Shown here: positions 1,786-63,348 of the stretch, in pieces
Position numbering within the stretch: the stretch's first letter is position 1
Layout: the number at the start of each line of letters is the position of its first letter
Assembly: GCA_040326155.1 (NCBI GenBank)
Contig: JBEQLE010000002.1
Coordinates: forward strand, 1-64,000
Reading direction: 5' to 3'
DNA from: Leptospirales bacterium
GTDB lineage: Bacteria > Spirochaetota > Leptospiria > Turneriellales > JAOUFE01
Length of the DNA: 64,000 bases
Program-made: the position numbers and the translations under genes
The notes under the pieces: model-generated
Database searches by the model: none
What the model saw: the letters and a program-made list of their open reading frames with translations, nothing else
What the model was told of the DNA's origin: nothing

Positions 1786-1786
1786 G

Positions 1787-3592: not shown

Positions 3593-3597
3593 AAAAT

Positions 3598-4383: not shown

Positions 4384-4480
4384 AAAAACACCAGAATTTA
4401 ATCTTTCCGTCCGGTTTTCTATACATTATATAACAGTTGACATCATGTTTTTAGACTCCAAAAAGGAGTGCGTTCACTCA

Positions 4481-10783: not shown

Positions 10784-11784
10784 TGAAAAATCTTCTTATC
10801 ACAGGCGGTTGTGGTTTTATCGGTAGTAATTTATTATTGCATTTGCATGAAAAATATCCTGATTATCAACTTTTGAATCTGGATAAGCTGACCTATGCCG
10901 CTGATCCAAAACATTTGAGTGGCATTGATAGCTCCGAGCGATATACTTTTTTACAGGCTGATATCAGTAATTTTTCCCAGGTAGCTGACATATTTAAAAA
11001 CTATGATATCGAGGGTGTTATTCACCTGGCAGCGGAATCTCATGTAGATAATTCGATTGAGAGTCCTGATGAGTTCGTCCACACCAATGTTAACGGAACA
11101 TTTAATATGCTTAAGGCTGTGTATTTGAACTGGATGGATGCGCCGGGTCAAACAAAAAAAGGCTATGAACACCGGCGGTTTCATCATGTTTCAACGGATG
11201 AAGTGTATGGCTCTCTGGGGGAGACCGGATTATTTACCGAGTCTACACCTTATGCGCCCAACTCTCCTTACAGCGCAACCAAAGCGGCCAGCGATATGCT
11301 TGTCAGAAGTTATTTTCATACCTATGGATTGAATACTGTAATTACCAATTGTTCAAATAATTTTGGCCCAAGGCAGCACACAGAAAAGCTGATTCCGGTA
11401 ATTATTCGAAAAGCCGTTGCCGAAGAGCCTATACCGATTTATGGAGATGGAAGCAATGTTCGGGATTGGTTATATGTACGGGACCACTGTACGGCGCTCG
11501 ATCTGTCCTTCCATAAAGGGATTGCCGGAGAAACGTATAACATTGGCGGTGATAATGAAATGTCCAATAATCGCGTGGCAAAATATGTATGCGATATCCT
11601 GGATGAACTTCAACCGCGCAAGAATGGCAGAAGCTATAATGAGTTGATCGCCTTCGTTAAAGATCGTCCCGGCCACGACTGGCGTTACGCCATAGATTCA
11701 ACTAAAATAAATAATGACCTTGGCTGGCGCACTTTGGAAAAATTTGAAGAAAATCTAGCAGAAACTATAAAGTACTATATTTAA
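10780..11784 (+). CDS. rfbB: dTDP-glucose 4,6-dehydratase
   Basis: [29 protein letters not shown] and DRPGHD motifs. Confidence 0.96.
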
Positions 11785-11794
11785 TAATTTGCCA

Positions 11795-12880
11795 ATGAAT
11801 GAAAATATCAACGTAACCCGTCCCTACATTCCCGATCCAGACAAGTTTAAAAACTATGTAGATCAAATCTTTCAAAGCGGGATGTTAACGAATGGAGGTC
11901 CTCTGGTTCAGGAATTGGAGCAGCGGCTTGAACATTACCTCGGCGTAAAAAACTTATTGCTGGTGGCTAACGGTACTCTGGCTCTACAGATCGCTTATAA
12001 GGTTCTGGGACTTAAAGGCGAAGTGATTACCACCCCATTTAGTTTTATAGCCACAACCAGTTCACTGGTTTGGGAAGGCCTGACTCCGGTTTTTGCCGAC
12101 ATTGATGAACATACACTTTGTATAAATCCGCAGGAGATCGAAAAAGGAATTACCGAAAACACCAGTGCTATTTTGCCCGTTCATGTATACGGCAATGCAT
12201 GTGACATTGATGCGATTCAATCCCTTGCCAAAAAAAATACTCTTCCCGTTATTTATGACGCCGCGCATGCGTTTGCGGTAAACTATAAAGGTCAAAGTGT
12301 GTTAAACTATGGCGATATTTCCACATTAAGTTTTCATGCGACAAAACTTTTTCATACGATAGAGGGCGGAGCACTGATTATTAAGGATGATGAACTTTAC
12401 CGGAAAGCGCAGAGAATGATTAATTTTGGATTTGAAAAAGGGGAGATCGTTGATATCGGAATCAATGCAAAAATGAATGAGTTCGAAGCCGCAATGGGCT
12501 TATGTGTTTTGGATGACATGCAAGATATATTGGCAAAACGAAAATTCATATGGGAAACGTATAAAAATAATATATCCGAACAATTGCTGAAAGTAAACTG
12601 GAATGTTGATGGTGAACCAAACTATAGTTATTACCCCATCCTTTTTTCTAAAGAAGACAAGTTGCTCAAATCAATATCTCAGTTGAAAGATGTTAATATC
12701 CACCCACGTCGGTATTTTTATCCATCATTGGACCAACTTCATTCGATTGTAAAAGAAGGGAATTGTCCCATTTCTCATGCTTTATCGAAACGTGTTTTAT
12801 GTCTGCCTATCTACCCAGGCCTGGAACCTGAAGTAATAAAAACAATATCAGGTATTGTGAATAGTTGTGAGGGAAATTAA
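11795..12880 (+). CDS. vioA: DegT/DnrJ aminotransferase, VioA-like (dTDP-4-amino-4,6-dideoxyglucose)
   Basis: LTNGGPLV, YDAAHAF, SFHATKLFHTIEGG and NAKMNE motifs; follows rfbAB and precedes WbqC. Confidence 0.75.
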   Translation: MNENINVTRPYIPDPDKFKNYVDQIFQSGMLTNGGPLVQELEQRLEHYLGVKNLLLVANGTLALQIAYKVLGLKGEVITTPFSFIATTSSLVWEGLTPVFADIDEHTLCINPQEIEKGITENTSAILPVHVYGNACDIDAIQSLAKKNTLPVIYDAAHAFAVNYKGQSVLNYGDISTLSFHATKLFHTIEGGALIIKDDELYRKAQRMINFGFEKGEIVDIGINAKMNEFEAAMGLCVLDDMQDILAKRKFIWETYKNNISEQLLKVNWNVDGEPNYSYYPILFSKEDKLLKSISQLKDVNIHPRRYFYPSLDQLHSIVKEGNCPISHALSKRVLCLPIYPGLEPEVIKTISGIVNSCEGN

Positions 12881-12883
12881 CAG

Positions 12884-13588
12884 ATGAAAGTAGGCATTAT
12901 GCAACCTTATTTTTTTCCCTACATCGGGTATTTTCAATTGATACACGAAGTTGATATTTTTGTTGTTTATGATAATATTGAGTATACAAAAAAAGGGTGG
13001 ATAAATCGAAATCGTATTCAACAAAATGGACAAGAGAAAACTTTTTCTATTCCAATCAAAAAAGACTCAGATTACCTACAGATATCTGAGAGACTAATAT
13101 CCCCAGAGTTTAACCGGAAGAATTTATTAAACCAAATACGGGGAGCATACGGTAAAGCTCCGTATTTCAAAGAAATATTTCCGTTATTGCAGGAAATTAT
13201 TTTATTTTCTGAAAGTAATTTGTTTCCATATATATATAACAGTATTGTTTTATTAGCAGAGTTTCTTGAAATTGAGACTAAGATACGTATCTCTTCTCAA
13301 ATCGAAATGGATCACTCACTAAAAGGAGAGAACCGGGTAATAGCAACTTGTAAAGCTTTGAATGCTGATGTATATGTCAATTCTGCCGGAGGAGTAGACT
13401 TGTATAAACCTGCCCATTTTCAGAAAGAGGGAGTTGACCTTAAATTTCTTAAATCTGAATTACTGACTTATGAGCAATTTTCACAGAATTTCATACCTTC
13501 GCTCTCGATTATTGATGTACTGATGTTTAATGGCAAGAAAAAATTAATTGATACTTTGATAGAGCAGTATACTCAATTTGGTACTTAA
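12884..13588 (+). CDS. wbqC: WbqC-family protein (putative N-glycyl/acyl transferase)
   Basis: IMQPYFFPYIGYFQL, WINRNRI, YGKAPYF and LSIIDVL motifs. Confidence 0.88.
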   Translation: MKVGIMQPYFFPYIGYFQLIHEVDIFVVYDNIEYTKKGWINRNRIQQNGQEKTFSIPIKKDSDYLQISERLISPEFNRKNLLNQIRGAYGKAPYFKEIFPLLQEIILFSESNLFPYIYNSIVLLAEFLEIETKIRISSQIEMDHSLKGENRVIATCKALNADVYVNSAGGVDLYKPAHFQKEGVDLKFLKSELLTYEQFSQNFIPSLSIIDVLMFNGKKKLIDTLIEQYTQFGT

Positions 13589-13622
13589 GGTCGAGCAATA
13601 TAGTTAATTTAATGGAGAAAAA

Positions 13623-14327
13623 ATGGAAGATAAAACGTATAAAACTATGGATCATGACAAGCATGCAAAGTCTTGCGATCCAAATGATTTTTGGGGACAA
13701 ATAAAAAGAAGCGTAAATGGCCAACCGGTATCTGAAGAGCAGGTACAAATGATTGTAAAAGCAGTTACCGATGCTTTGTCTTTTGAAAAGAGCGATGTTT
13801 TGTTGGATTTGGCTTGTGGGAACGCTGCTTTGGCCAGTTATTTTTACGAATCCTGTAGTGAATACTTGGGGGTAGATTTTTCCGAAAGTTTAATCGAGGT
13901 TGCCAAGAAAAATTTTGAAAAACCAAATACTCATTCATTCTTAATGTCGGGAGCAGCTGAATATATTGTTTCAGAAAAAAAACCGGAACGCTTTACCAAA
14001 GTATTGTGCTATGGCAGTTTTCCTTATTTTTCATCAGAGGATGCCTTGACTGTTCTCAAATGTTTGTATACAAACTATAAAAATGTTAAAAAAGTTTTTA
14101 TCGGAAATCTTCCCGATAAAGATTTAGTTGATGAATTCTATTACAAGGATAGAGGGTATACCGAAGAAGAAATCAATGACCACCTTTCTTCGATTGGGAT
14201 CTGGAGAACCAAGGATGAGTTTGCTGAACTTGTGCAAAAGGCTGGTTGGAAAAATTTCAAGTTTTCTGGTATGCCCAAAGACTCCTACGCTCATAAATTT
14301 CGTTATGATATTCTCCTATGGAGATAA
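13623..14327 (+). CDS. Class I SAM-dependent methyltransferase
   Basis: Motif I LLDLACGNA, followed by GVDFS. Confidence 0.85.
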   Translation: MEDKTYKTMDHDKHAKSCDPNDFWGQIKRSVNGQPVSEEQVQMIVKAVTDALSFEKSDVLLDLACGNAALASYFYESCSEYLGVDFSESLIEVAKKNFEKPNTHSFLMSGAAEYIVSEKKPERFTKVLCYGSFPYFSSEDALTVLKCLYTNYKNVKKVFIGNLPDKDLVDEFYYKDRGYTEEEINDHLSSIGIWRTKDEFAELVQKAGWKNFKFSGMPKDSYAHKFRYDILLWR

Positions 14328-15532
14328 TGGCTAATTCGATGAATTTGAACAAAAAACAACCGGCGCTTTGGGGAGGTGAGCCCATATTCTCTGGACCAAA
14401 GCCCACATCGAACTTAGTGAAACCATCCGAAGAAACTTTCTTTCAGTATGCTTACAGGATTTTCGATAAAAAGCGATCTTTTACAAGAGGTGAGTTAGTT
14501 AGTGAATTGGAAGGGCGATTAAAAATACTTCATAATGTAGAATACTGTATTACATTTAATTCGGGATTTTGGGCTTTAGCTGCTTTGATTGATTCTGGGG
14601 TTTTAAAAGGAAAGAAAGAAGTTGTATTGCCTTCTCTTACCTATCGTCGAATGGGAGATATTATTTCTTGGGTGGGATTAATCCCTCATTTTAGTGACAT
14701 TAATCGGGAAACTCTAGCTATAGATTCGCAGTCAGCACGAAAATGCATTAATGATAATACTGGTTTGATTATTGGAGTCCACCCTGTTGGTGGTCACTGC
14801 GATATTGATGGATTGTTGCGCTTGTCTGAAGAAACCGGCGTACCGGTGATTTTTGATGGTGTGGAGTCTGTTGATGAAAAGCACAAAGGGAAGAAAATTG
14901 GTTCCTTCGGAGCTGGAGAGTTATTCTCACTGGGAGCCAGTAAGTTGGTCAATGGTTTTGAGGGTGGTTACATTACTACAAATGATCAAAGACTGGCAAT
15001 GGAATTACAAAAAATAAGAAGTGGAGATCAGAGTTTGGCTGATCTACGCGTAATGAAAGCTGAGTTAAATGAAGTGCATGCAGCCATGACTCTCGCAGGT
15101 CTAGATGATTTAGAGCAACAGTTAAATAGAAATCGAAACCGCTATAACGCTTACAAGCGTCATCTTGCTTGTGTCGAAGGCTTGGAATTGTTTCCCCATA
15201 TTGAAGAGAATGATCCCAGTTACAAAAATATTGTGGTGGAAGTGACCGAGGCTTGGCCTTATACTAGAGAGGAAACTATACAGTTGTTAAATGCCGAGAA
15301 TATTTTGGCAAGAGCCTATTATTATCCACCATTAACCCAAACGAATATTTCCTATTCATACAAAAGCTCTTCGATGACCTCTACAGATTACGTGGCAGGC
15401 CATTTTATTTCCATGCCATGTGGGCATTTCGTTGATTTGGGTGATATTCAAGTTATCATTGATTATTTGAAATACTTGAAAGAAAATGCCAGCGATTTTA
15501 AGAAAAAGCTACAAAGAGGTGGTACCCCATGA
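14327..15532 (+). CDS. Second DegT/DnrJ-family PLP aminotransferase
   Basis: FSLGASKLVNGFEGGYITTND retains the PLP Lys; also AELNEVHAA and ARAYY. Confidence 0.85.
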   Translation: MANSMNLNKKQPALWGGEPIFSGPKPTSNLVKPSEETFFQYAYRIFDKKRSFTRGELVSELEGRLKILHNVEYCITFNSGFWALAALIDSGVLKGKKEVVLPSLTYRRMGDIISWVGLIPHFSDINRETLAIDSQSARKCINDNTGLIIGVHPVGGHCDIDGLLRLSEETGVPVIFDGVESVDEKHKGKKIGSFGAGELFSLGASKLVNGFEGGYITTNDQRLAMELQKIRSGDQSLADLRVMKAELNEVHAAMTLAGLDDLEQQLNRNRNRYNAYKRHLACVEGLELFPHIEENDPSYKNIVVEVTEAWPYTREETIQLLNAENILARAYYYPPLTQTNISYSYKSSSMTSTDYVAGHFISMPCGHFVDLGDIQVIIDYLKYLKENASDFKKKLQRGGTP

Positions 15533-16194
15533 CCAATTTTCAAGTTAACTCAACTGACGATAATATGAAAAACCCTAATAAAAGTGATGAAGTTGGGTTG
15601 TGTATGGATGACTGGCCAAATTTTCGAAAGGCTTTTGAAGGAATATTTTCCCGACAGTATTATACTGACAATGGCCCCTTAGTTGTACAGTTGGAGTCTA
15701 CTTTAAAAGCAAGGTTAAACTACAGTAATGTTATTTGTGTTGGAAGTTCCTGGGTAAGTTGGTTAATGCTTTTTGATGCTGAGCCAACTGTGAATCATAT
15801 TCTGGTAAAAGGAAAATATAGTGAAAACTCAAGTGCACACCTTGCTGCAAATTATGTTGGTAAAAATATAAAATTCGTGGACGAAACAAATCCATCAGAA
15901 AAGCCGAGTGCATTTTTTGTTAAAGAATCTTATCATGATATTTTTGAAAATGATTATTCGGAAGGATCGAATAAAGCGACAGCCATTGTCGTTGAGTTCC
16001 CAGAGATTGATTGTTTGTCTGGTGAGTGGGGAGCATGTATTTGTACTAATAATGATGATATCGCCGACAATGTTCGTACTATGAGAAGCAGTAGTGGTGT
16101 AATTCGAAAAATGTCTGTGAAGAGAACTGTCAATGGTAGAATGTCTGAGGCTCAGGCTGCGGTAGTTTTAATGAATGTCGCTCCTGAGAGATAA
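15529..16194 (+). CDS. Truncated, degenerate DegT-like protein lacking the PLP lysine
   Basis: YYTDNGPLVVQLE, GEWGACICTNND and NGRMSEAQAA align with DegT motifs; there is no SFHATK lysine and no C-terminal domain. Confidence 0.6.
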   Translation: MTNFQVNSTDDNMKNPNKSDEVGLCMDDWPNFRKAFEGIFSRQYYTDNGPLVVQLESTLKARLNYSNVICVGSSWVSWLMLFDAEPTVNHILVKGKYSENSSAHLAANYVGKNIKFVDETNPSEKPSAFFVKESYHDIFENDYSEGSNKATAIVVEFPEIDCLSGEWGACICTNNDDIADNVRTMRSSSGVIRKMSVKRTVNGRMSEAQAAVVLMNVAPER

Positions 16195-19916: not shown

Positions 19917-20159
19917 ATGAGTAACGCAGATCAAATAATTAAATATATTACGGATGAGATTTTAGAGGATGAGGATCAAGTGATTGATGAGCAAACATCT
20001 CTTTTTGACGGGGGAGTTCTGGATTCTTTGAACCTAGTTACACTTATTTCATTCCTGGAAGATACTCATAAAATTAAAATAAAATCCTCAGAGGTAACTC
20101 TTGAAAATTTAAATACGGTTTCAAATATGATTAATTTTATTGATAAAAAATTAGCTTGA
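19917..20159 (+). CDS. Acyl carrier protein (DltC-like), cassette 1
   Basis: LFDGGVLDSLNLVTLISFLE contains the phosphopantetheine Ser; acidic 80-aa protein. Confidence 0.92.
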   Translation: MSNADQIIKYITDEILEDEDQVIDEQTSLFDGGVLDSLNLVTLISFLEDTHKIKIKSSEVTLENLNTVSNMINFIDKKLA

Positions 20160-21229
20160 GACAGATGAATAGACAATATCGAATATTACTTTGGTTCGTA
20201 TTCAGTTTTGTAACACTACAGGTTTTCGGGGAAGTACTTTTATCTATGGACTACCCATGGAAACTCAGTGTACTTGAACCATACCTGCTTCGGGGGAAGC
20301 AAGATGCATGGGTGCATAATGCATTTGAAATCCAAAGATTAAAGAAACTGGCTAAAACCGATAAAGAAATTAAATTAATCGTGTATTTGGGCGGCTCGGT
20401 TTGTGCTTCCGGAATAACCTCGGATGAAAAAGTCAGCAAACAACTTTCGACAGCACTTAAAAAGTCGGTTGTTTTTAGCCGACTTTGTTCCCCTTACAAG
20501 TCATTTGCCGATGAACTTAAAATAGTAGAAGAGCTTGGGGCAATCAATGCTACGATAATAATAAATACTGAAATTGGTAGATTTAGTCGGCCGAATGAAA
20601 AACAATTAGTAACTAGGAAGGATAAAAGTAAGTATTCATATAATAAATATTTCTACATACCTGTTACCGAAAGTATCAAAACTATATTTAAAGAATACAA
20701 TATTTCAATAGAGCTAAATCAGCATTTCAGATTATGGAAAACAGCTAAAGCATTGGGAATATCGATTCGAAAAAGATTTGTTAAACGTAAAAAATTGACC
20801 TATCATTATAATGGATACGTGTCGGGGACCCCTGTTAATGAAGACCATAAAACAGAGATAGAAGCTAGATTGACGGAAAGTAAAGGTAAATGGGGACAAA
20901 CTCAGGAATTTCAAGTTAATTTTTCACTCTTGAAAATGGCTATCGAAAAAGCCCAGTTGAATCAGAATCGTGTAATTTTAGTAGAGACTCCGGTGAACCC
21001 TTTGTTTGTTAAATATACCGAAGCAAACAGGTCTGAATATGAGAGTATTTTAAATCAAATTATAAAGTCACAAGGCCTGGGCTATCTCGATTTGCGGTAT
21101 GCTCTTAACTGGAAACCTGAAGAGTTTCGAGATTTGCATCATATGATTCATCCTGGCCCGGACCGATTTACCGCGATATTGGCCAAACGACTTAGTGAAA
21201 TTTTATTAAATATGGATTTACATAAATGA
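20156..21229 (+). CDS. Membrane-anchored SGNH/DltD-like acyltransferase, cassette 1
   Basis: N-terminal TM helix, VYLGGS (candidate catalytic Ser), ETPVNP, and C-terminal FRDLHHM (DxxH); lies between the ACP and the MBOAT. Confidence 0.7.
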   Translation: MRQMNRQYRILLWFVFSFVTLQVFGEVLLSMDYPWKLSVLEPYLLRGKQDAWVHNAFEIQRLKKLAKTDKEIKLIVYLGGSVCASGITSDEKVSKQLSTALKKSVVFSRLCSPYKSFADELKIVEELGAINATIIINTEIGRFSRPNEKQLVTRKDKSKYSYNKYFYIPVTESIKTIFKEYNISIELNQHFRLWKTAKALGISIRKRFVKRKKLTYHYNGYVSGTPVNEDHKTEIEARLTESKGKWGQTQEFQVNFSLLKMAIEKAQLNQNRVILVETPVNPLFVKYTEANRSEYESILNQIIKSQGLGYLDLRYALNWKPEEFRDLHHMIHPGPDRFTAILAKRLSEILLNMDLHK

Positions 21230-22404
21230 TTTTTTTTAACGAGTATTTTGTTTTGGCATTATTAGCCGCTCCCGTGATTTATTGGAAATTTGTACCTGAA
21301 AAGTATAGAAACCTGTTTATTATATTTTTTGGATTTATTGGTTTATCCTTTGTTCAGTTAAATTTCAGTATTTTCCTGATGTTAATCGTTGTGTTTGTAT
21401 TTTACGCGGCCCGCTTTATGCAACGATCCCATAAAGGCAGAGTATTAACTTTAATAATTATCGTCCTGACATTATTGCTTGCAGGTTTTAAATATTTTAA
21501 GGTTTTTTATCTAGCAATTTTTGAAGCTGAAACTGATTTTTCTAAAAGCTACCTGGTGCCGCTTGGTTTATCATATCTGATCTTTAAACTGATTGCCTAT
21601 GTTGTCGACATTTTTCGAGAAGAAATCAAAGAATCTAGTTTGCAAGGTTTACTTGCCTTTATCTTTTTCATACCAAGTTTTCCTGCCGGTCCGATTGAAA
21701 GATATCAACATTTTATTTCGGGAAGACGCAATAGCTTTGATTCCACGTTTTATCTCGCAGGCTTGAAGAGATTGACCATTGGCTATTTTAAAAAAGTTGT
21801 TCTTGTAAACTTTTTATTAACATACATCGTAAACACAAAGCTCTCCGGAATTCTGGATACAGACCAGGGAGCATTATATGGTTCTTTCATTGCATTGTCC
21901 TTTCTGGTAGGTTCTCTGGTTTACGCTTATATCGATCTGTCAGCCTATGCGGATATTGCCATAGGTTACGGGCAATTATATGGCTATCAAATATGTGAAA
22001 ATATGAATTATCCGTTATTTGCCCAAAACCTGAGTGAATACTGGCAGCGCTGGCACATGTCTCTATCCCAGTGGTGCCGCAATAATGTCTATTTCCCGAT
22101 GCTAGGGTCGACGCGTAACAATAATATTTCTTTATACGCTAGTTTTCTGGTAATGGGCTTATGGCATTATGCAAGTTTAAACTGGATATTGTGGGGTCTC
22201 TGGCATGCCAGCGGTATAATCATATATTCAAAATTGAATCGATTTCGAAAGAAGAAAAAGATTAAAAAACTTTTGCCAAAAAAAATTGGGTACGCTGTTG
22301 GCATGGCAATTACCGTTATCTATTCCGGTTTAGGTTTTGCCTTTATTACCCAGAAGACGACATCGGAAGCTTTAAAACTGCTTGGCAAAGTATTTGGTCT
22401 ATGA
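21226..22404 (+). CDS. MBOAT acyltransferase (DltB/AlgI family), cassette 1
   Basis: PLGLSYLIFK, AGPIER, YWQRWHMSLS and GLWH (catalytic His) motifs. Confidence 0.93.
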   Translation: MIFFNEYFVLALLAAPVIYWKFVPEKYRNLFIIFFGFIGLSFVQLNFSIFLMLIVVFVFYAARFMQRSHKGRVLTLIIIVLTLLLAGFKYFKVFYLAIFEAETDFSKSYLVPLGLSYLIFKLIAYVVDIFREEIKESSLQGLLAFIFFIPSFPAGPIERYQHFISGRRNSFDSTFYLAGLKRLTIGYFKKVVLVNFLLTYIVNTKLSGILDTDQGALYGSFIALSFLVGSLVYAYIDLSAYADIAIGYGQLYGYQICENMNYPLFAQNLSEYWQRWHMSLSQWCRNNVYFPMLGSTRNNNISLYASFLVMGLWHYASLNWILWGLWHASGIIIYSKLNRFRKKKKIKKLLPKKIGYAVGMAITVIYSGLGFAFITQKTTSEALKLLGKVFGL

Positions 22405-22411
22405 GGTTAAC

Positions 22412-22534
22412 ATGGTAGAAAGAATCAAAGAAGCAATGATAGGTTTTATTTGGGCACTGTTTGTGCTCTTTATCTTGTTTGTTCATTACACCTTATGTGA
22501 AGCAGTTCCGGTTTTTCGATATGAAGGTTTTTAG
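22412..22534 (+). CDS. DltX-like 40-aa membrane peptide (not in the ORF track)
   Basis: Hand translation: MVERIKEAMIGFIWALFVLFILFVHYTLCEAVPVFRYEGF*. GAGG RBS at 22403-22406, one TM helix, C-terminal FRYEGF; fills the MBOAT-VOC gap. Confidence 0.85.
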   Translation: MVERIKEAMIGFIWALFVLFILFVHYTLCEAVPVFRYEGF

Positions 22535-22537
22535 AAA

Positions 22538-22942
22538 ATGGAATTTCACCATATTGGAATCGCTGTAAAAAAATTAACGGAATCGTCCGTTTTGTTTGAA
22601 AATATTCTGGAAACTGCCTTTTCAAATACCGAAGATGTTGATTCACAAAAAGTTCAAGTGACTTTCGGCGGCGGAGTGGAATTATTGCAGGCGACGGATA
22701 TCCATTCCCCGCAATTTCCCATGATGAAACATCCCATTCTCAGCCATCTCGATAAGCACGGAGAGGGGATTCATCATATTTGTTTTTCAGTTGAAAATCT
22801 GGAAGCAAAAGTAAACGAACTGAAAAAATCCGGCATAAAACCATTGACCAATGATCCGATCATTGGGGCCGGCGGCAAAAAGGCAATTTTTCTACATCCG
22901 AAAGACTGTAATGGGACTTTAATAGAGTTGATGGAAAAGTAA
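22538..22942 (+). CDS. VOC-superfamily protein, methylmalonyl-CoA epimerase-like
   Basis: FHHIGIAV, VELLQ, GEGIHHICF and FLHPKDCNGTLIELME metal-ligand motifs. Confidence 0.85.
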   Translation: MEFHHIGIAVKKLTESSVLFENILETAFSNTEDVDSQKVQVTFGGGVELLQATDIHSPQFPMMKHPILSHLDKHGEGIHHICFSVENLEAKVNELKKSGIKPLTNDPIIGAGGKKAIFLHPKDCNGTLIELMEK

Positions 22943-24427
22943 ATGAGCGATATAATTAATTCCCCCCTCGATTTCTTAACGGAGCATTCATTGAAAAGCC
23001 CCGGAAAATGTGCTATAAGAATCAACAATATTGATTATACCTATGATATGTTTTCACGCGAAGTAGGACTTTTCGCGAAACTGTTCAAGTCGCACGGAAT
23101 CGGGCAAGGCAGTTTGGTTGCAGTATACTCTGATCATGAGTTTGACGTATTATGCACTATTTTTGCATTATGGACAATCGGTGCCGTTTGTATACCAATA
23201 AATCCAACTTATAAAACGGACAAATTACAGCAAATCGAATCGACAGTTCGGCCTGATTTTGGTTTTTATTCTGTTGATTATGATATAACATACGATCGCC
23301 AATATCCGATGTCTTTGATTGAAAAATCAAATGAACCCGGAAATGTGGAGGTTGTACACCCGAAAGCGGATGACCCGGCTATGATTATGTTTACTTCGGG
23401 AACATCGGGAGTTCCCAAAGCGGTCCCCATTACGCATGGTGCGATTGCAAGGAATTCACTGAGTACGGCAAGTCGGCTTGGTTTAACGAAGGAAGATGTT
23501 CTTTTTATTAATACGCCCCCTTATACGACTAGTTCAATTATTCATGTATTAACAATGATGTCACAAGGCGCTCAGACCGTTATTGATCGAAGTTTTTTAT
23601 TTGGCGCCGCCATTATCGATAAAATAGAAGAGCATCAATGTACTTGCTTTGGGGGAGTTCCGATTCATTTTACTCGATTACTTGCTGCCTTAGAAGAAAA
23701 AGATGCACCGAAAAAACTTCATAAGCTAATTAATTCAGGGGATCATTTATCTGTTCCTGTGCTGGAAAAACTACAAAAATTAATGCCGCAGGCCGCCATG
23801 TACTGCATTTACGGGCTTACTGAGGTAGCTGGCAGACTGTGTGTTTTACCTCCGGAACTCGTACGCAGCAAATCAGGTTCCGTTGGATTCCCTATTGAAG
23901 GGATGTCCGTAACGATTAGAGGTTCCAAGCTGGAGCTCCTTCCTGCCGGGGAAACAGGCGAGGTTTTTATTCAGGGCCCGAATTTAATGAAAGGTTACAT
24001 AAATAACCCGGAGGCTAATGAAAAATCGATGACCTCGGTGGGATTTGCCACCGGCGACTTCGGTTATTTGGACAGCGACGGTTGCCTTTATTTAAAAGGG
24101 CGGAAAGACGATATTTTTAAGGTTGGCGGTGAAAAAGTCAGCGTGAAAATGATAGAGGAAGCTCTTGTTGGTTACGAAGAATTTGCGGACGCAATGGTTG
24201 CTCCAGAATACGATGAACACATGGGTAATTACATACCCTGTCTTTATTATGTTCTAAAAAAAGATGCAACCTTTAGTCGTAAGAAACTATTGGGGATACT
24301 CAGGAAACGTCTTCCGCAAAACCATATACCCACAAAGTTTGTGGAACTCGAAGAAATACCGCGAACAAGCTCGGGTAAGTCCATCAGAAAAGTTCCTTCG
24401 CCGGGGCAACCATTGAAGCAACAATAA
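22943..24427 (+). CDS. ANL-superfamily adenylating enzyme (acyl-ACP/CoA ligase), cassette 1
   Basis: FTSGTSGVPK, YGLTE, ATGD, GRKDD.FKVGG and PRTSSGK motifs. Confidence 0.92.
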   Translation: MSDIINSPLDFLTEHSLKSPGKCAIRINNIDYTYDMFSREVGLFAKLFKSHGIGQGSLVAVYSDHEFDVLCTIFALWTIGAVCIPINPTYKTDKLQQIESTVRPDFGFYSVDYDITYDRQYPMSLIEKSNEPGNVEVVHPKADDPAMIMFTSGTSGVPKAVPITHGAIARNSLSTASRLGLTKEDVLFINTPPYTTSSIIHVLTMMSQGAQTVIDRSFLFGAAIIDKIEEHQCTCFGGVPIHFTRLLAALEEKDAPKKLHKLINSGDHLSVPVLEKLQKLMPQAAMYCIYGLTEVAGRLCVLPPELVRSKSGSVGFPIEGMSVTIRGSKLELLPAGETGEVFIQGPNLMKGYINNPEANEKSMTSVGFATGDFGYLDSDGCLYLKGRKDDIFKVGGEKVSVKMIEEALVGYEEFADAMVAPEYDEHMGNYIPCLYYVLKKDATFSRKKLLGILRKRLPQNHIPTKFVELEEIPRTSSGKSIRKVPSPGQPLKQQ

Positions 24428-24447: not shown

Positions 24448-25848
24448 ATGACTATGCAAAGAATAACAGTAATTGGCTTAAGCGGCTCAATACGTTCCAA
24501 TCACAACCATTTTAAAACATTGAATCAAATGATTGTAAAAGCAAAAGATCGTGCTGAATTTACCACCTTATTGAAAAATTCGGATTATGTCTACTCGAAT
24601 ACCGATATTGCGTTATCTGTAGCCCTTCTCGGAGCAAAACAAAACGATGCCGATGTAAAGATTATTTCTCTTACCGATTTATTCCGGCATAGAAATGAAA
24701 AGCTATACGAAAATCTGACGGAGATGGTAACCGTCAATGATATTGAAGAACTTGATACGTTGAGTATTGATCAAGAACATTTAAAAAATATTTCTAACGA
24801 CATTAATAAGGCCGATGGAATAATCATGGGGACCCCGGTATATTTTGGTGATCGTTCATCGGTTGCAAATAAAATATTACAATTAACCAGCATTCAAAAC
24901 CAACTGAGAAATAAGGCAATCGGCGTGGTATCGGTCGGAGCCAAACGCAATGGTGGTCAGGAAACTGCAATTATATATACTCTATACGAAGTCCTGATGC
25001 AAGGTAGTATTATTACGGGAAACGGTCCGAAAACCGCCCAGTATGGTGGAACGGTTGTGGCGGGTGATTCGGGTATGGCGATTGAAGATAACTTTGGTAT
25101 GGACACTTCTTACGGAACCGGGAAACAAGTGTCACAACTATCCAAAATATTAAAAGCGGGCCAAGAAAAATCCGGAGGTTCTCCCAGAGTAATATTTTTA
25201 CTTTCTATGGATACTCCAGAGAAAAAATATAACAAGATTTTAGATGAGTATATTTCACGCCAGCAAGAACTGACCAATTATGAGACTGTCGATTTAACTG
25301 ATAAAAATATATATCGTTGCATTGCATGTAATGTTTGTCCGTCCGTAACAGTTAAGAAAAGGAAGGAATCCGAAGTTTCTCCGTATACTTGTGTTATTCA
25401 AACGGAAAAAGATTACATGAAAGAGCTCCGTTTAAAGCTTATAGACGCTGATGTTATTATTATTGTCGGAGTAAATTCAAATGAGAACTTAACATATCGT
25501 TATCAGGCTTTTATGGAGAGAACCCGGTTTATTCGCAGGGAAGACTTCGAATTGACTAACAAAGTAATAACAAGTTTATTAATTAATGATGTTGGCTCCA
25601 TGCATAATCCGATCTTTGGAGTAAAAGTAGTTACTTCCTTTATTCGCCATAACACATTTATGACTACTCCCTTGCAAATTATGATGCATAATAATACAAT
25701 AATTAGAGAAGACTCTTTAGATGATTCTTTCCCAAATTTCAAGCAAATTCTAAACGGAAGAAAAATGGTACAACCGATCAAAGTAAGTTATAAAGCTACG
25801 GGATATGCAAATAAATCACTAGACAACTCGGAGACCAAACGCCAATAA
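24448..25848 (+). CDS. Tandem flavodoxin-like (FMN reductase/Isf-type) protein with a Cys cluster, cassette 1
   Basis: GLSGSIR, GTPVYFG and GAKRNGGQE in the N-domain; CIACNVC-x17-C in the second domain. Confidence 0.8.
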   Translation: MTMQRITVIGLSGSIRSNHNHFKTLNQMIVKAKDRAEFTTLLKNSDYVYSNTDIALSVALLGAKQNDADVKIISLTDLFRHRNEKLYENLTEMVTVNDIEELDTLSIDQEHLKNISNDINKADGIIMGTPVYFGDRSSVANKILQLTSIQNQLRNKAIGVVSVGAKRNGGQETAIIYTLYEVLMQGSIITGNGPKTAQYGGTVVAGDSGMAIEDNFGMDTSYGTGKQVSQLSKILKAGQEKSGGSPRVIFLLSMDTPEKKYNKILDEYISRQQELTNYETVDLTDKNIYRCIACNVCPSVTVKKRKESEVSPYTCVIQTEKDYMKELRLKLIDADVIIIVGVNSNENLTYRYQAFMERTRFIRREDFELTNKVITSLLINDVGSMHNPIFGVKVVTSFIRHNTFMTTPLQIMMHNNTIIREDSLDDSFPNFKQILNGRKMVQPIKVSYKATGYANKSLDNSETKRQ

Positions 25849-26818: not shown

Positions 26819-27763
26819 ATGAAAAAAATATTAATATTTGGTACGGGTTTTATCGCAAATGCGTTGATTCAGCACATAAATTCCGTTTATACCGGTACGA
26901 AAATCTCTGTTATTTATAACAAGACCAGAATAAAAGGAGAAAATGCCGAAGGGATAACTCAGTATTCCTTGGATGATAATTTGAAAAACGTTCTCTCTAT
27001 AGAAAAACCTTCGTATATTGTATGTTTATACGGAATATCGTTTGTACCATCTAATATTGATCCGATGGAGTCTATTGATAAAAATGTGTTAACTACGCTG
27101 AATTTTCTCGAAATTATATATCAAACTGGTTACGCAGAAAACCTGGAAAAAATACTAATTATCGGTTCTGCCAGCGAATATGGTAAATTTTACAAAGAAG
27201 CAATTTCAGAAGATTTCAAATTGCACCCCACTTCACTTTACGGATTATCTAAAATATTTTTATATAATACTGCACTTTATTATAAGGAAAGAGGGCTACC
27301 AATTGTTTATGGAAGGCAATACAATACTATTGGAGTTGATCAACGTGATGTTTTTGCGCTACCTTCTTTTGCCCGGCAAGTGGCCAAAATAGAAAAAGGA
27401 CTTCAAGAACCCATTATGGACGTAGGTGATTTAACTCAGGAAAGAGACCTTCTAGATGTAAGAGACACAGTTTTGGCATATACTTTACTACTTAAAAAAG
27501 GGGAAATTGGCGAGGTTTACAATATTGCCTCGGGTAATTATACATCAATGGAAAATGTAGTAAATATTTTACTGGAACAATCGAGCATAGCAATGGCCGA
27601 TATAAAAATTGAATCGAATGTGAAAAAATTTTCCGAAAATAATAGTCTGAGCAAAAGATTATGGGGTGATATAAGTAAATTACGATCACTCGGTTTTAAA
27701 CCAAAGTATACGTTAAAAGAAACAACTTTGGATATTTTGAATTACTGGAGAGCGAATGTTTGA
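26819..27763 (+). CDS. NDP-sugar reductase/epimerase (extended SDR, RMD-like)
   Basis: GTGFIA, GSASEYG, PTSLYGLSK, SFARQVAKIE and RDLLDVRD motifs. Confidence 0.8.
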   Translation: MKKILIFGTGFIANALIQHINSVYTGTKISVIYNKTRIKGENAEGITQYSLDDNLKNVLSIEKPSYIVCLYGISFVPSNIDPMESIDKNVLTTLNFLEIIYQTGYAENLEKILIIGSASEYGKFYKEAISEDFKLHPTSLYGLSKIFLYNTALYYKERGLPIVYGRQYNTIGVDQRDVFALPSFARQVAKIEKGLQEPIMDVGDLTQERDLLDVRDTVLAYTLLLKKGEIGEVYNIASGNYTSMENVVNILLEQSSIAMADIKIESNVKKFSENNSLSKRLWGDISKLRSLGFKPKYTLKETTLDILNYWRANV

Positions 27764-29663
27764 CAGCGGAGAAATACGTACTCTATTTAAAGAGAAGCAT
27801 AAATATAAAAAAACTTATATTATAGCTGAAGTGGGAATTAATCATAATGGGGACTTAAACAAAGCTCTGAATTTAATTAAAGCCGCAAAAGAATCCGGAG
27901 TAAACGCAGTCAAATTTCAAAAACGAGATTTAAAAAGTATTTATTCTGAAAATGTACTGAACGATGCAAATGCTTCTGAGTGGACTTTTGAATACCTTAT
28001 TCCACTATTGAAAGAATTTGAACTATCAGAAGATGATTATCTAAAAATAAGAAATTATTGCGATACATTGAAGATTGACCTGATTATTACTCCATTTGAT
28101 GAAAAGTCTGCGGAATTTGTAGCAAATTTGGGTATTAGTGCCTTTAAAATAGCTTCGGCAGATATGACGAATATCCCTCTCGTAAAGAAATGCGCTGGAT
28201 ATAATATTCCGTTATTGATTTCTACGGGAATGTGGAATGACGAAGATATTGAAAAGTGTGCCAACATCTATAAAACTGAGCGTATAGATTTTGCCTTTCT
28301 CCTGGCCCAATCAACATATCCCGCGCCATTTGAATCTTTGAAGCTTGATTATATTAATCGGTTGAAAGAATTTTCAGATGTCGTTGGATATTCTGGACAT
28401 GAACGAGGCACTTTTATTCCGGTCGCGGCTACGGCGATGGGGTGTCAGATTATTGAAAAACATATTACCTTTGATAAAAATGAAAAAGGTCCAGATCATA
28501 AGGCATCCATGTTGCCGGCAGAATGGAATGAAATGGTATATCAGTTGCGTACTTTGGAGAAAGCAAGAGGTTCGCAGAAGAGAGTAAATCAGGCAGAGAT
28601 ACAGAACAAGGAGGCGTTTGCAAAATCTGCCGTACCAATTAGAGATTTGCCCGAAGGACATGTTTTAATCAAATCTGATATTATATTTAAAGCTCCCGGA
28701 AAAGGGATATTTCCACATGACATAGCAAATTACTTTGGGAAAGTATTAAAAAAAACCGTAAAAAAAGAACACTATATTAACACGACCGACTTTGAGGATA
28801 CCATTGAAATTTCTCAATGGGAAAGTTTCCAGTTTTCCAAGCAGTGGGGAATAAAATGCCGCTTTCATGATTTTGAAGAGTATAATATACTAAACAGTCC
28901 GTGCGTAGAGTTTCATTGTTCTCAGACAGATCTCGATATCGATTTTAAACCTGGTGAAGTTTCGAAATCTGAGTTAATCGTTCATGCCCCGGAAATTTAC
29001 GACAGAAAACTTGTGGATATATGTGTAGAAGATGAAACTAGTGTTAAACAATCTTTAGATATTCTTCAGCGGTCTATCGATAAGACGCTGTCTCTGTCTA
29101 AGTATTTTTCGAAAGAGAAAAAACCCAAACTGGTCATCCATGCGGGTGGCATGTTCTTAAATACGGCCAATCTAGTAGACACGGAAGAACTTACCAATAG
29201 GGCAATTGAAAATTTTAAATTGCTTAAATTCAATTCCGATGATATAGATATATTACCCGAGAACTTGCCGCCACGACCGTGGTACTTAGGCGGAGAATGG
29301 TTTCAGCACGGATTTATGCTGGCAAAAGATATGATTCATTTTTGCGACAGTTTAGGTCTGGGCATGACATATGATATATGCCATGCTAGTTTATATTGCA
29401 ACGAATACGACATTGATCTTGCGAGCTATACAAAAGAAGTCATGCCTTTTACAAAACATATCCATATCTCCGATGCATACGGAATTAATGGGGAAGGCGT
29501 ACAAATTGGCGAAGGACATATTGATTTCGAAAAAGTTCTAAAAGAGGTTGAACCTTATCAGTTTACATGGGTGCCGGAAATTTGGAGTGGTCATTTACAC
29601 TACGGCGCAGGTACTTATAAATGTATGCAAATATTAAATTCAAAGTTCTTTAAAGCCTTATAG
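27756..29663 (+). CDS. neuB: NeuB-family nonulosonate synthase fused to SAF and a C-terminal sugar-isomerase-like TIM barrel
   Basis: IIAEVGINHNG, KFQKR, KIASAD, GYSGHE, IEKHIT and GPDH motifs; C-terminal ENLPP, DICH, HIHISDA and VPEIW. Confidence 0.85.
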   Translation: MFDSGEIRTLFKEKHKYKKTYIIAEVGINHNGDLNKALNLIKAAKESGVNAVKFQKRDLKSIYSENVLNDANASEWTFEYLIPLLKEFELSEDDYLKIRNYCDTLKIDLIITPFDEKSAEFVANLGISAFKIASADMTNIPLVKKCAGYNIPLLISTGMWNDEDIEKCANIYKTERIDFAFLLAQSTYPAPFESLKLDYINRLKEFSDVVGYSGHERGTFIPVAATAMGCQIIEKHITFDKNEKGPDHKASMLPAEWNEMVYQLRTLEKARGSQKRVNQAEIQNKEAFAKSAVPIRDLPEGHVLIKSDIIFKAPGKGIFPHDIANYFGKVLKKTVKKEHYINTTDFEDTIEISQWESFQFSKQWGIKCRFHDFEEYNILNSPCVEFHCSQTDLDIDFKPGEVSKSELIVHAPEIYDRKLVDICVEDETSVKQSLDILQRSIDKTLSLSKYFSKEKKPKLVIHAGGMFLNTANLVDTEELTNRAIENFKLLKFNSDDIDILPENLPPRPWYLGGEWFQHGFMLAKDMIHFCDSLGLGMTYDICHASLYCNEYDIDLASYTKEVMPFTKHIHISDAYGINGEGVQIGEGHIDFEKVLKEVEPYQFTWVPEIWSGHLHYGAGTYKCMQILNSKFFKAL

Positions 29664-29828: not shown

Positions 29829-30515
29829 ATGAAAGCACTAGCGATAGTTCCAGCCAGAGGGGGGTCCAAGCGACTACCCAAAAAAAATTTACGTCATCTT
29901 GGCGGTAAACCACTGGTTTGTCACACGCTCGATGCTGTTCAAGAATCCGAAAAGTTTGCAAAAGTAATTTTGTCTTCCGACGATTCGGACCTTCTCGCTT
30001 TAGCAGAAAACTATGAAATCGTTATACCTGAAAAAAGAGAGGAAAGGCTCTCGGGTGATAAAGTTACCGTACTCACACTGATTAATGAAATCGCCGCACG
30101 TCCTGATATAAAAGATGAATTTGACGTTATTTCTCTTTTACTGCCAACATGCCCTTTTCGAAACGCCTCTCATATTCAAGGCGGCATGGATTTACTCGAC
30201 AAGGATGTCGACGGTGTTATCAGTGTAACTGAATACGAATTTCCCCCTCAGCTTGGCATTACACTCGATAACAATATTATAAAACCCGTTTTCGAACCCT
30301 GTCCTTTAATCACGGGCAACACAAGATCACAAGACCAGGATGTGATATATCGACCAAACGGGGGTTTTTATATTCAATGGATGGAGAAATTTTTAATAAA
30401 TCAAAATTTCTGGAAAGGAAAAGTAAAAGGGTACGCTATGGGTAGAATGGATTCACTGGATATTGATACGGAACTGGATCTTGAATATGCTGAATTTGTT
30501 TATAATAAGAAATAA
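29829..30515 (+). CDS. neuA: Acylneuraminate cytidylyltransferase family protein
   Basis: AIVPARGGSKRLPKKN, PTCPFR, PNGGFY and SLDIDT motifs. Confidence 0.88.
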   Translation: MKALAIVPARGGSKRLPKKNLRHLGGKPLVCHTLDAVQESEKFAKVILSSDDSDLLALAENYEIVIPEKREERLSGDKVTVLTLINEIAARPDIKDEFDVISLLLPTCPFRNASHIQGGMDLLDKDVDGVISVTEYEFPPQLGITLDNNIIKPVFEPCPLITGNTRSQDQDVIYRPNGGFYIQWMEKFLINQNFWKGKVKGYAMGRMDSLDIDTELDLEYAEFVYNKK

Positions 30516-30579: not shown

Positions 30580-31536
30580 ATGAACCACTTAGAAAATCTT
30601 CGCAGTAAAATCAAAGGACCAGTCTTTTCTATTGTGACTCCTTTTCGAGAAAAGGACGATGAAATTGATTTCGATGCACTGGAAAAATATATTAATTATG
30701 CATACGAGGCGGGGGCTAGAATATTCTATGTTATGGCTTATAACAGTAGATTTAGCGAATTATCATGGGAAGAGATTAAGGTACTAAATACGTTTGTTAC
30801 GAAAACCGTAAAAGGGATCGATTCAAACTGCATAATGATTACTGCCGATCCGCTACATTGTTCCACTGAGGTTTCCGTCGAGTTTGCCCGACACTCCGAG
30901 CTGATTGGCGCCGATTTAATATCTTTGATATTCAGGGAGAAAGTCTATAGCGACGATCAGGTTTATAACCACTTTAAAAAAATTAACGATTCTACCGGTA
31001 TCGGAATTTTAATCCATGAAATGAAACTGATTTCGGGTTACGGGGATTTTAGTTACAATTGGCCAGTAGAGTCTCTCGACCGCTTGGTTGATCTGTCGAA
31101 TGTTATTGCGATTAAAGAGGATGCAAAAGAAGATGACTTTACTCGAAACGTGATAAACACGATAAAAGACCGTGCCTCCATAGTTCTTGCGGGTGGTGGT
31201 AAATCACAATGGTTGCGATTTGCCGATGACGGTTGCCAGGCATATTTAAATGGAATCGGCGTTTTCGAGCCGAAACTTGCGATCAGGTTTCGGGAGCATT
31301 ATCTAAATGGTAATACGGATGCTTATATGCGAATTGTAAACGAAATTGAAGCTCCGTTTTTTGCGGAAACTGTAAAAAAATTCGGATGGCACCTGACAAT
31401 TAAGGCCGCTATGGAAGCCAGAGGACATATGTCTCGCTATGAACGCATGCCGTTGCAAGCTCTAGACGATGAGAAAGCAAATATTGTAGCCTCGGTATTG
31501 GATAAACTTCCTATTGATGAGCTGTCCGAAAAATAA
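30580..31536 (+). CDS. DHDPS/NAL-family class I aldolase
   Basis: SIVTPF, IDFDALEKY and NVIAIKED (Schiff-base Lys); the usual GTTGE is replaced by AYNS. Confidence 0.8.
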   Translation: MNHLENLRSKIKGPVFSIVTPFREKDDEIDFDALEKYINYAYEAGARIFYVMAYNSRFSELSWEEIKVLNTFVTKTVKGIDSNCIMITADPLHCSTEVSVEFARHSELIGADLISLIFREKVYSDDQVYNHFKKINDSTGIGILIHEMKLISGYGDFSYNWPVESLDRLVDLSNVIAIKEDAKEDDFTRNVINTIKDRASIVLAGGGKSQWLRFADDGCQAYLNGIGVFEPKLAIRFREHYLNGNTDAYMRIVNEIEAPFFAETVKKFGWHLTIKAAMEARGHMSRYERMPLQALDDEKANIVASVLDKLPIDELSEK

Positions 31537-61728: not shown

Positions 61729-61734
61729 AATTTT

Positions 61735-63075: not shown

Positions 63076-63328
63076 TGTTATTATTCAACTTGGTTTCAAG
63101 ATAATCGACGATACGATTCACCGTTCCGAGTGTATCAAGTGTAAGGTCGAAAGGGTCGATCGATATGGAAAACTCAGTTTCCATGAACATGATAACCTGC
63201 AGAACATTGATTGAATCGAGAAAGTCATTTTTAAATATTTCTTCATCAACACTTGTCAGTGTTTTTCCAGCGAGAGTTTCCACCTCTCCTTTTATTTTGT
63301 TTATTAGTTTCGCTCTTTCTATGGCCAT
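63068..63328 (-). CDS. Acyl carrier protein (DltC-like), cassette 2
   Basis: FLDSINVLQVIMFMETEF contains the phosphopantetheine Ser. Confidence 0.9.
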   Translation of the reverse strand: MAIERAKLINKIKGEVETLAGKTLTSVDEEIFKNDFLDSINVLQVIMFMETEFSISIDPFDLTLDTLGTVNRIVDYLETKLNNNNA

Positions 63329-63348
63329 TTTATACTCTCTGTTTTATT

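Follow-up and report, generated by a model that had tools for sequence, protein, structure and literature searches.

The window analysed here, 64,000 nucleotides of contig JBEQLE010000002.1 from a Leptospirales bacterium, is filled nearly completely by one surface-glycan cluster, as judged from Pfam and NCBIfam scans of its open reading frames (ORFs). Two genes in this cluster encode paralogous tandem flavodoxin-like proteins, referred to as FLD1 and FLD2, and each of them accompanies an acyl-transfer cassette with an AMP-forming ligase, an acyl carrier protein (ACP), an MBOAT protein and a DltD-like protein. In the following list FMN stands for flavin mononucleotide.

24448-25848, + strand: FLD1, tandem flavodoxin-like protein copy 1, 466 amino acids, starting 21 nt 3' of the AMP-ligase gene of cassette 1
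24448-25167, + strand: N-domain of FLD1 (residues 1-240), flavodoxin-like of the WrbA/FMN_red type, with GSxR, PxYFGD and KRNGGQET and no Cys
25180-25848, + strand: C-domain of FLD1 (residues 245-466), a second, divergent flavodoxin-like domain without FMN loops and with an invariant YQ..ER.R..R helix
25318-25392, + strand: Cys motif of FLD1, R-C291-x2-C294-x2-C297-P-x16-C315, predicted [4Fe-4S] ligands
58977-60377, + strand: FLD2, paralogue of FLD1, 466 amino acids, convergent with cassette 2
59847-59921, + strand: Cys motif of FLD2 (C291..C315), with the same Cys positions as in FLD1

The two proteins are 57% identical (266/465) over their full length, with 7 gap positions only. The long identical blocks described in the initial annotation of this DNA were found again and include PVYFGDRSSVANKILQLT, GAKRNGGQET and YRYQAFMERTRFIRR. 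Its statement that the pair is better conserved than the ligases and MBOATs also holds, the AMP-ligases of the two cassettes being 28%, the MBOATs 37% and the ACPs 33% identical. GSIRSN, PVYFGD and KRNGGQET all lie within the first 175 residues, and the N-half thus has the FMN motifs without a Cys cluster, as had been noted. Cys 291, 294, 297 and 315 are present in both copies, giving the C-x2-C-x2-C-x17-C pattern reported for the two C-domains. Beyond this motif there is no Cys in FLD1, and FLD2 has C44 and C121, both outside conserved alignment columns.

Pfam recognises FMN_red (PF03358) only, and only in the N-half (FLD1, E 5.5e-22; N-halves at 78.4 and 58.5 bits against a cut-off of 24); the C-half alone scores 18.3 and 16.9 bits, below this cut-off. 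NCBIfam gave WrbA/SsuE matches far below threshold only (NF002999, 35.4 bits against 141; TIGR01755, 27.5 against 132.5). When PDB sequences were searched with a single sequence and with a 38-sequence profile, WrbA-type reductases alone were returned, through residues ~97-230 (profile match to WrbA, E 3e-7). A full-length AlphaFold2 model based on a 38-sequence alignment (pLDDT 91.8, pTM 0.92) consists of two successive beta-alpha-beta domains, and Foldseek assigns it to the WrbA family (E ~1e-7). The C-half was also modelled alone, from an alignment of 44 sequences from the window and the loci described below (pLDDT 95.5). This model had 138 matches in the PDB at E<=1e-3, and the listed ones are all flavodoxin-like reductases (SP1951, WrbA, YhdA/AzoR, SsuE). 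At the sequence level the C-half profile had one significant match in the PDB, the flavone reductase FLR (7d38, E 6e-6; two others at E 2.7 and 4.7), spanning exactly CxxCxxC..C, which is N-terminal in FLR, and the next helix-strand. Alignment of the N-half with the C-half by hhalign was weak (probability 9%) and in a homologous register, N104-129 being aligned to C316-341. The C-half fold together with the sub-threshold FMN_red match argues for an internal duplication. According to the models, FLD is a tandem of two flavodoxin-like domains of the type of WrbA and of the iron-sulfur flavoproteins (Isf), with FMN motifs in the first half only and the four Cys in the second only, in agreement with the divided architecture first suggested for it.

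Across 38 diverse relatives the invariant positions of the N-half are G13, S14 and R16, P130, Y132, F133, G134, D135, S137 and S138, and G164 with K166-T173 (KRNGGQET). In the C-half they are R290, C291, C294, C297, P298, C315, D322, N343, Y352 and Q353, followed by E357, R358, R360, R363, S397, R400, N402, Y448 and Y453. No Cys is conserved in the N-half. In the C-half the FMN motifs are gone and four Cys are invariant (CX2CX2CP-X7-19-C). This half lacks the GSxR-type phosphate loop and has a nearly invariant Asp in the equivalent segment, which would speak against binding of a second FMN. Of the 79 alignment rows (2 window copies and 77 loci), 78 retain both the four Cys and the FMN-type motifs, and the exception is a gene cut by a contig end. 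Conservation to this degree is far beyond chance. Spacing from the third to the fourth Cys is 7-19 residues in 78/79 rows, mostly 11 in the genome loci and 17 in the window clade, and x7 occurs in 3 rows only.

Isf, with its prototype in Methanosarcina thermophila (COG0655), shares with FLD the flavodoxin-like fold, the CX2CX2C start and the combination of FMN with a [4Fe-4S] cluster, predicted in the case of FLD. It is a single domain of ~190 amino acids carrying both cofactor sites, with an RNGGQE-type flavin loop as in FLD. In FLD, by contrast, the FMN motifs are found in residues 1-240 only and the Cys motif in residues 291-315 only. The compact CX2CX2CX4-7C arrangement is not seen either; the first three Cys fit, and the fourth follows 17 residues later in the window copies. 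A passage of PMC3164229 gives the compact motif as CX2CX2CX5-7C. The settings also differ, being glycan acylation for FLD and methanogen electron transport or stress for Isf, and no Isf chain was matched by the 38-sequence profile or the C-half profile in the PDB sequence searches. As modelled, FLD would work like Isf yet lacks two of its defining features.

The N-half matches WrbA/PF03358 by sequence, profile and fold, and the C-half by fold. It is a bona fide PF03358 member and not a WrbA equivalog (35 bits against 141); WrbA is a single-domain homotetramer without Fe-S, whereas FLD has two domains and a predicted cluster. FLR is an ene-reductase with a WrbA-like fold, FMN at the subunit interface and a flavone substrate (PMC7862272). 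Its Cys motif and FMN site share one domain, which is followed by a C-terminal tail where FLD has a second flavodoxin-like domain. The CxxCxxC...C stretch of FLR (7d38) aligns with the Cys motif of FLD. In the main text of the FLR paper (PMC7862272) the words 'iron-sulfur' and 'cysteine' occur 0 times and '4Fe-4S' once, for enoate reductases; anaerobic purification may reveal an Fe-S cluster in FLR that has so far gone unreported. FLD is a new architectural variant of the Isf/WrbA superfamily.

Family members are ~420-530 amino acids long. A word-indexed search gave 1019 clusters at E<=1e-3 among 7702 candidates, and among the 120 clusters listed almost all are of 420-490 amino acids and carry generic source names only ('multimeric flavodoxin WrbA', 'NADPH-dependent FMN reductase', 'flavodoxin family protein'). 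An exhaustive search with the C-half profile returned 623 representatives at E<=1e-3, 196 at <=1e-10 and 118 at <=1e-30, with the C-domain starting almost always at residue ~200-290 in proteins of 385-515 amino acids. Stand-alone C-domain proteins were considered and rejected, as each of the 16 short matches checked is collinear with the middle or the end of the two-domain form and appears to be a truncated gene call. We found neither a Pfam model of the C-half nor an NCBIfam equivalog or a solved structure for the family, and literature searches found no paper on the tandem architecture or its glycan context; a preprint on Isf and dipicolinate has no bearing on the tandem family. From the ESM Atlas only generic 'flavodoxin / NAD(P)H oxidoreductase' clusters were obtained. 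The clusters nearest to P0001 by language-model features include three sets of flavodoxin-family or unnamed proteins of 234-278 amino acids that are 97-100% viral (Uroviricota; scores 0.84), which we record as a lead only. The FLD family is widespread yet unnamed. Cultivable carriers include Roseivirga sp. E12, Curvivirga aplysinae and Sedimenticola hydrogenitrophicus, all non-pathogenic, and a Cellvibrio relative.

Genomic context was evaluated on a locus sample made from the best 80 of 180 relatives, one genome per species, an FLD ORF being present in 77. Neighbours were identified with hidden Markov models (HMMs) grown from the window proteins and then, after Pfam, from a second partner set (MR_MLE, ATP-grasp). 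For loci lacking the first module, 146 of the 272 neighbour ORFs were scanned with Pfam and 122 were covered instead by our own MR_MLE and ATP-grasp HMMs. The counts below are given for all 77 loci and then for the 44 loci with >=5 kb on both sides of FLD; distances are to FLD.

AMP-ligase within 5 kb: 32/77; 22/44
ACP within 5 kb: 30/77; 19/44
MBOAT within 5 kb: 19/77; 12/44
DltD-like within 5 kb: 20/77; 12/44
MBOAT or ACP within 5 kb: 30/77; 19/44
Full set of ligase, ACP, MBOAT and DltD nearby: 18/77; 12/44
Enolase-superfamily MR_MLE protein within 5 kb: 29/77; 18/44
ATP-grasp ligase within 5 kb: 26/77; 16/44
AMP-ligase or ATP-grasp within 5 kb: 57/77; 38/44
Any module gene within 5 kb: 63/77; 40/44
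Module gene within 300 bp on the same strand: 59/77; 37/44

FLD is linked, nearly always as a direct neighbour, to ATP-dependent carboxylate-ligation modules within glycan gene clusters, a linkage that we hold with high confidence, and the linked modules span at least 15 bacterial phyla and archaea. The modules are of two types, an AMP-ligase with a carrier, often joined by MBOAT and DltD, or an ATP-grasp ligase with a dipeptide-epimerase-like enzyme. Homologues had been expected to lie mostly beside MBOAT or ACP genes, and this is not borne out by the counts above. The proposal that FLD marks an MBOAT/ACP system therefore stands as far as the tight linkage to the cassettes in the window is concerned, but not for the family. 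In 30/77 loci FLD lies instead beside a dipeptide-epimerase-like enolase-superfamily enzyme and/or an ATP-grasp ligase, and these other homologues are thus not scattered. The marker claim was too narrow, FLD being indicative of a broader class of 'acid-onto-glycan' modules that come in two kinds.

Common gene orders are FLD-DltD-ACP-MBOAT-ligase and FLD-ACP-ligase-DltD-MBOAT for the one type and ATP-grasp-MR_MLE-FLD and FLD-MR_MLE-ATP-grasp for the other. The FLD and AMP-ligase genes overlap by 4-10 nt in five loci (L027, L036, L037, L053 and L057). The MR_MLE partner is nearest to dipeptide epimerases (3q45, 1jpm) and, with scores below cut-off, to the NCBIfam models for MenC, N-acyl-amino-acid racemase and L-Ala-D/L-Glu epimerase. 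Natural fusions of FLD with MR_MLE_C were found in P0124 (922 amino acids; source name 'L-alanine-DL-glutamate epimerase-like ... / multimeric flavodoxin WrbA') and, as a partial protein, in P0231 (461 amino acids), neither of them in the window. Fusion of FLD to a ligase or ACP was not seen, the longer-protein search having given the epimerase fusion only, a blank that is weak evidence. The ATP-grasp partner (L047, 7509-8699) has no PDB sequence relative at E<=1e-3 and matches only 'carbamoyl phosphate synthase-like protein' and 'hypothetical protein' models in NCBIfam, all below cut-off; it is itself uncharacterised. Other recurrent neighbours are all glycan enzymes: DegT (16 loci), left-handed beta-helix acyltransferases (11), Asn-synthase-like amidotransferases (~10), GFO_IDH_MocA (8), B12-radical SAM (7), DUF4910 (5) and NeuB (5, or 9 by phmmer).

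Some clades have settings of their own. In the Scalindua/Planctomycetota clade (L015, L017, L020, L021) the FLD genes are near-identical and no ligase or epimerase is nearby; a UbiE-type methyltransferase gene lies 3' of FLD in L015 and L017 and a glyoxalase-fold gene 5' of it in L017. This clade does not fit the glycan-module rule. A gene for a PNPOx-like flavoprotein is found directly 5' of FLD at 4208-4843 of L036, 9010-9654 of L045 and 4277-4930 of L046. These are the Rhodoferax/Giesbergeria/Sedimenticola clade, where 3/3 loci have the PNPOx-like gene and, directly 3' of FLD, an AMP-ligase gene, MBOAT and ACP being undetected there. In L043 a 995-amino-acid protein with DHODB_Fe-S_bind, Fer4_20 and Pyr_redox_2 domains (11692-14679) is encoded 3' of a module-free FLD. 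This protein may pass electrons from NAD(P)H to FLD.

The same enzyme appears to be used in both contexts. Across both module types, 27 of the 38 conserved positions checked are identical or deviate in <=1 row, including all four Cys, PxYF.D, KRNGGQET and YQ..ER.R..R; the remaining ones (e.g. G/A13, S/G137, N/S343, N/H402) vary with clade and not with module type. A maximum-likelihood tree of 76 FLD proteins shows at least 5 changes of module type, or 8 when each label is counted against all other rows. The tree does not track taxonomy, and it places FLD1 and FLD2 in one clade with a homologue from Turneriellaceae (99% support).

The two cassettes of the window are composed as follows.

19917-20159, + strand: cassette 1 carrier protein, ACP/DltC-like, with the invariant Ser of the LDS motif
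20156-21229, + strand: cassette 1 DltD-like protein (Pfam DltD, E 1.5e-5; own family HMM, E 2e-93)
21226-22404, + strand: cassette 1 MBOAT, DltB-like, below the equivalog cut-off
22538-22942, + strand: VOC/glyoxalase-fold protein, methylmalonyl-CoA-epimerase-like (107 bits against a cut-off of 115)
22943-24427, + strand: cassette 1 AMP-forming ligase, 494 amino acids
25925-26764, + strand: PhyH-family Fe(II)/2-oxoglutarate dioxygenase, adjoining FLD1
60514-61728, - strand: cassette 2 MBOAT
61735-63075, - strand: cassette 2 AMP-forming ligase, 446 amino acids, with an A4-region sequence type different from that of ligase 1
63068-63328, - strand: cassette 2 carrier protein, LDS serine present
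63349-63999, - strand: cassette 2 DltD-like protein, C-terminal part, cut by the window end (E 1.8e-15 with the DltD HMM from related loci)

Cassette 1 thus has the order ACP, DltD-like, MBOAT, VOC protein, AMP-ligase, FLD1 and PhyH-family dioxygenase, the Dlt-like cassette proper covering 19917-24427. Relatives of the VOC protein were found with our own HMM in 5/80 loci, and relatives of the PhyH dioxygenase with phmmer in 0/80, so the latter is not a conserved partner of FLD. Cassette 2 (60514-63999, minus strand) consists of the truncated DltD-like gene, ACP, AMP-ligase and MBOAT. The ORF at 63349-63999 is without any Pfam match, and its match to the DltD HMM indicates that cassette 2, too, is a full four-gene Dlt-like set. 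AMP-ligase, LDS-serine carrier, DltB-like MBOAT and DltD-like protein are accordingly shared between the Dlt system and both window cassettes, where they are encoded together. To our knowledge the Dlt system has no flavoprotein.

The likeness to Dlt is one of composition, as the cassettes do not contain DltA or DltB equivalogs and all NCBIfam Dlt scores are below cut-off. A D-alanine-specific ligase of the DltA equivalog type is not indicated, the DltA models scoring 146 bits against cut-offs of 476-560. The window ligase is nearer to nonribosomal peptide synthetase (NRPS) adenylation domains and MenE than to DltA, the best PDB matches of ligase 1 being an NRPS A-domain (E 3.5e-55) and MenE (1.5e-49), with DltA at 3e-26, and it has no A4 Asp. 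The partner AMP-ligases fall into at least four A4-region sequence types, and the two window ligases are of different types. An Asp in the A4 motif FDxS marks alpha-amino-acid substrates. It is missing in 34 of the 36 aligned AMP-ligases, both window ligases included, an FDxS-like motif being present in 2/36, and this argues against a plain D-alanyl unit.

We propose that the FLD family arose by tandem duplication of an Isf/WrbA-type domain, followed by a division of labour between the copies. The N-half would hold one FMN, and the four Cys of the C-half would ligate one [4Fe-4S] cluster. The two domains would pack like neighbouring subunits of an Isf/WrbA oligomer, with the cluster within electron-transfer distance of the flavin. 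Isf uses such an inter-subunit relay from cluster to flavin. The architecture and the cofactor assignment, taken by themselves, are in our view quite probable. An external donor may supply the electrons, either ferredoxin at the cluster or, at the flavin, NAD(P)H. The substrate, small and anionic, would bind at the interface of the flavin and the C-domain, which would be lined by the invariant Arg, Tyr, Gln and Glu.

FLD would then carry out one constant two-electron redox step on a carboxylic-acid building block before its activation. The reaction is placed on the acid because the only constant companions of FLD are enzymes that activate or attach carboxylates and an epimerase that needs a free carboxylate, as is the case for enolase-superfamily dipeptide epimerases. 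Reduction of a 2-oxo or 2-enoyl acid would be the likeliest reaction, since the group acted on would be invariant and the side chain free to vary with the ligase. FLR, the one solved sequence relative of the Cys-bearing domain, is a flavin ene-reductase. The acid would afterwards be ATP-activated and attached to a polysaccharide. In the window, the ligase would adenylate the product, the ACP would be loaded, and the MBOAT/DltD pair would transfer the group to the polymer outside the membrane; in the Dlt system MBOAT and DltD serve extracytoplasmic acylation. One FLD copy would be kept per cassette, we propose, because each copy handles its own acid. This complete chain, from an Isf-like fused dimer with a cluster-FMN relay to a redox step on an acid later attached to glycan, is put forward tentatively, at somewhat less than even confidence. 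It is possible, and rather doubtful, that an undescribed Fe-S/flavin redox step yields a non-standard acyl donor such as a 2-substituted acid that is reduced or has the D configuration. Here a fused 'Isf dimer' with one flavin and one cluster would act on a 2-oxo or dehydro precursor and serve two unrelated attachment routes, Dlt-like O-acylation by carrier and MBOAT, and amidation by ATP-grasp ligase and epimerase.

Several points weigh against this proposal and against the linkage on which it builds. The tallies from the 80 loci are biased towards closer relatives, and neither module was found in 14/77 loci. Among these 14, L004, L021 and L060 are contigs of <3.1 kb and L020 and L025 have the gene at a contig end, but the Scalindua clade and the clade of L043, L055 and L074 have room for a module and lack one, and are genuine exceptions. 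The four Cys could hold Zn or another cluster. To make an acid common to both cassettes, one FLD copy per cluster should suffice, and a constant active site next to very different ligases could mean that FLD never acts on the acid. Moreover, reduction of 2-oxo acids is normally carried out by ordinary NAD(P)H dehydrogenases, and the need for an Fe-S flavoprotein is unexplained.

FLD might instead tailor the acyl group after activation, as acyl-S-carrier or acyl-adenylate, or as the ligated amide in the ATP-grasp/epimerase loci, which would need cassette-specific protein recognition. Each window cassette having its own FLD, the two only 57% identical despite identical catalytic residues, is in line with this, as are the translational coupling to the ligase in 5 loci and the physical fusion to an epimerase in P0124. 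The PhyH-type dioxygenase adjoining FLD1 fits as well, enzymes of this type often acting on carrier-bound acyl groups. The ATP-grasp/epimerase loci, however, have no carrier protein and show the same invariant residues, enolase-superfamily enzymes require a free carboxylate, and the longer-protein search gave no FLD-carrier or FLD-ligase fusion; we regard tailoring at this stage as unlikely. A function as dedicated electron shuttle for another redox enzyme of the cluster (B12-radical SAM or Fe(II)/2-oxoglutarate dioxygenase), with no small-molecule substrate of its own, would suit a member of the Isf/flavodoxin superfamily, where electron transfer is typical. Seven loci have B12-binding radical SAM genes at a distance of up to 6 kb, the PhyH gene neighbours FLD1, and the 995-amino-acid Fer4_20/Pyr_redox_2 protein is encoded 3' of FLD in L043. 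It is nevertheless quite unlikely, as no redox partner is constant (PhyH in 0/80 loci, radical SAM in ~7/77), none of the constant partners (ligases, epimerase, ACP, MBOAT) depends on an electron supply, and the invariant Arg, Tyr, Gln and Glu of the C-half would resemble a substrate site more than a docking face.

FLD could also act on the sugar, with a nucleotide-sugar or a uronic-acid amide intermediate as its substrate, for instance, and would then create or modify the acceptor and not the acyl donor. The clusters are rich in DegT (16 loci), GFO_IDH_MocA (8), NeuB (5; 9 by phmmer) and CMP-transferases, and the invariant basic residues might suit a nucleotide-diphosphate substrate. None of these sugar enzymes is constant or adjacent, though, while a ligation module is adjacent in 59/77 loci, and acylation by MBOAT/DltD is extracytoplasmic and on the finished polymer, as established for Dlt, which makes this very unlikely. 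FLD could finally be a generic WrbA/Isf-like quinone or oxygen/peroxide reductase riding in surface-glycan islands. Its nearest solved relatives are WrbA-type NAD(P)H:quinone oxidoreductases and a few clades have no module nearby, but module adjacency in 59/77 loci across at least 15 phyla and archaea, fusion and translational coupling are unexpected for a housekeeping stress enzyme. Such a function is highly improbable, and the role of FLD is clearly pathway-specific.

The remaining content of the window cluster comprises cysD/cysNC/cysQ, a NusG-like gene, an ABC-2 exporter, sugar-nucleotide enzymes of the rml and DegT types, a NeuB-like synthase with a PseF-like cytidylyltransferase, many glycosyltransferases and three sulfotransferases.

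904-5044: cysD, cysN/cysC fusion, cysQ and NusG-like gene, opening the cluster
40098-40790, 48454-49377 and 55867-56757: three sulfotransferases inside the cluster

A sulfated glycan is the probable product of the cluster. PAPS and sulfotransferase genes are present in the window and also in several FLD loci, and in L002 an APS (adenosine 5'-phosphosulfate) kinase gene lies directly 3' of FLD. Sulfation as a constant partner of FLD was rejected, since only ~7/80 loci carry such genes (phmmer, window proteins). The NeuB-like synthase is fused to an AP_endonuc_2 domain, a xylose-isomerase-like TIM barrel (27756-29663, + strand), and is followed on its 3' side by the PseF-like cytidylyltransferase (29829-30515) and a DHDPS-family aldolase or dehydratase (30580-31536). 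Stand-alone AP_endonuc_2 genes neighbour FLD in L001, L017 and L035. A DegT aminotransferase of 404 amino acids (14318-15532, + strand) is overlapped by an ORF of 221 amino acids (15529-16194, + strand), whose sole match is a short DegT-like piece (residues 164-215); it may represent either a gene remnant or part of a split gene.

The charge of O-antigens, capsules and other surface glycans, their antigenicity and their recognition by phages and the immune system are set by non-sugar substituents, and few of the enzymes supplying unusual acyl groups are known. FLD provides a compact and highly conserved signature gene that ties together two ligation routes previously unconnected. Within the Isf/WrbA superfamily it would also be a clean natural case of domain duplication with later subfunctionalisation of the cofactors, and a structure of FLD would show how a relay from [4Fe-4S] to FMN that normally forms between subunits can be hard-wired in one chain. 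Once the reaction of FLD is defined, the acyl chemistry of the glycans of uncultured organisms would become predictable from sequence. If FLD does make a non-standard acyl donor, it would stand for a widespread and unrecognised class of glycan decoration in bacteria and archaea.

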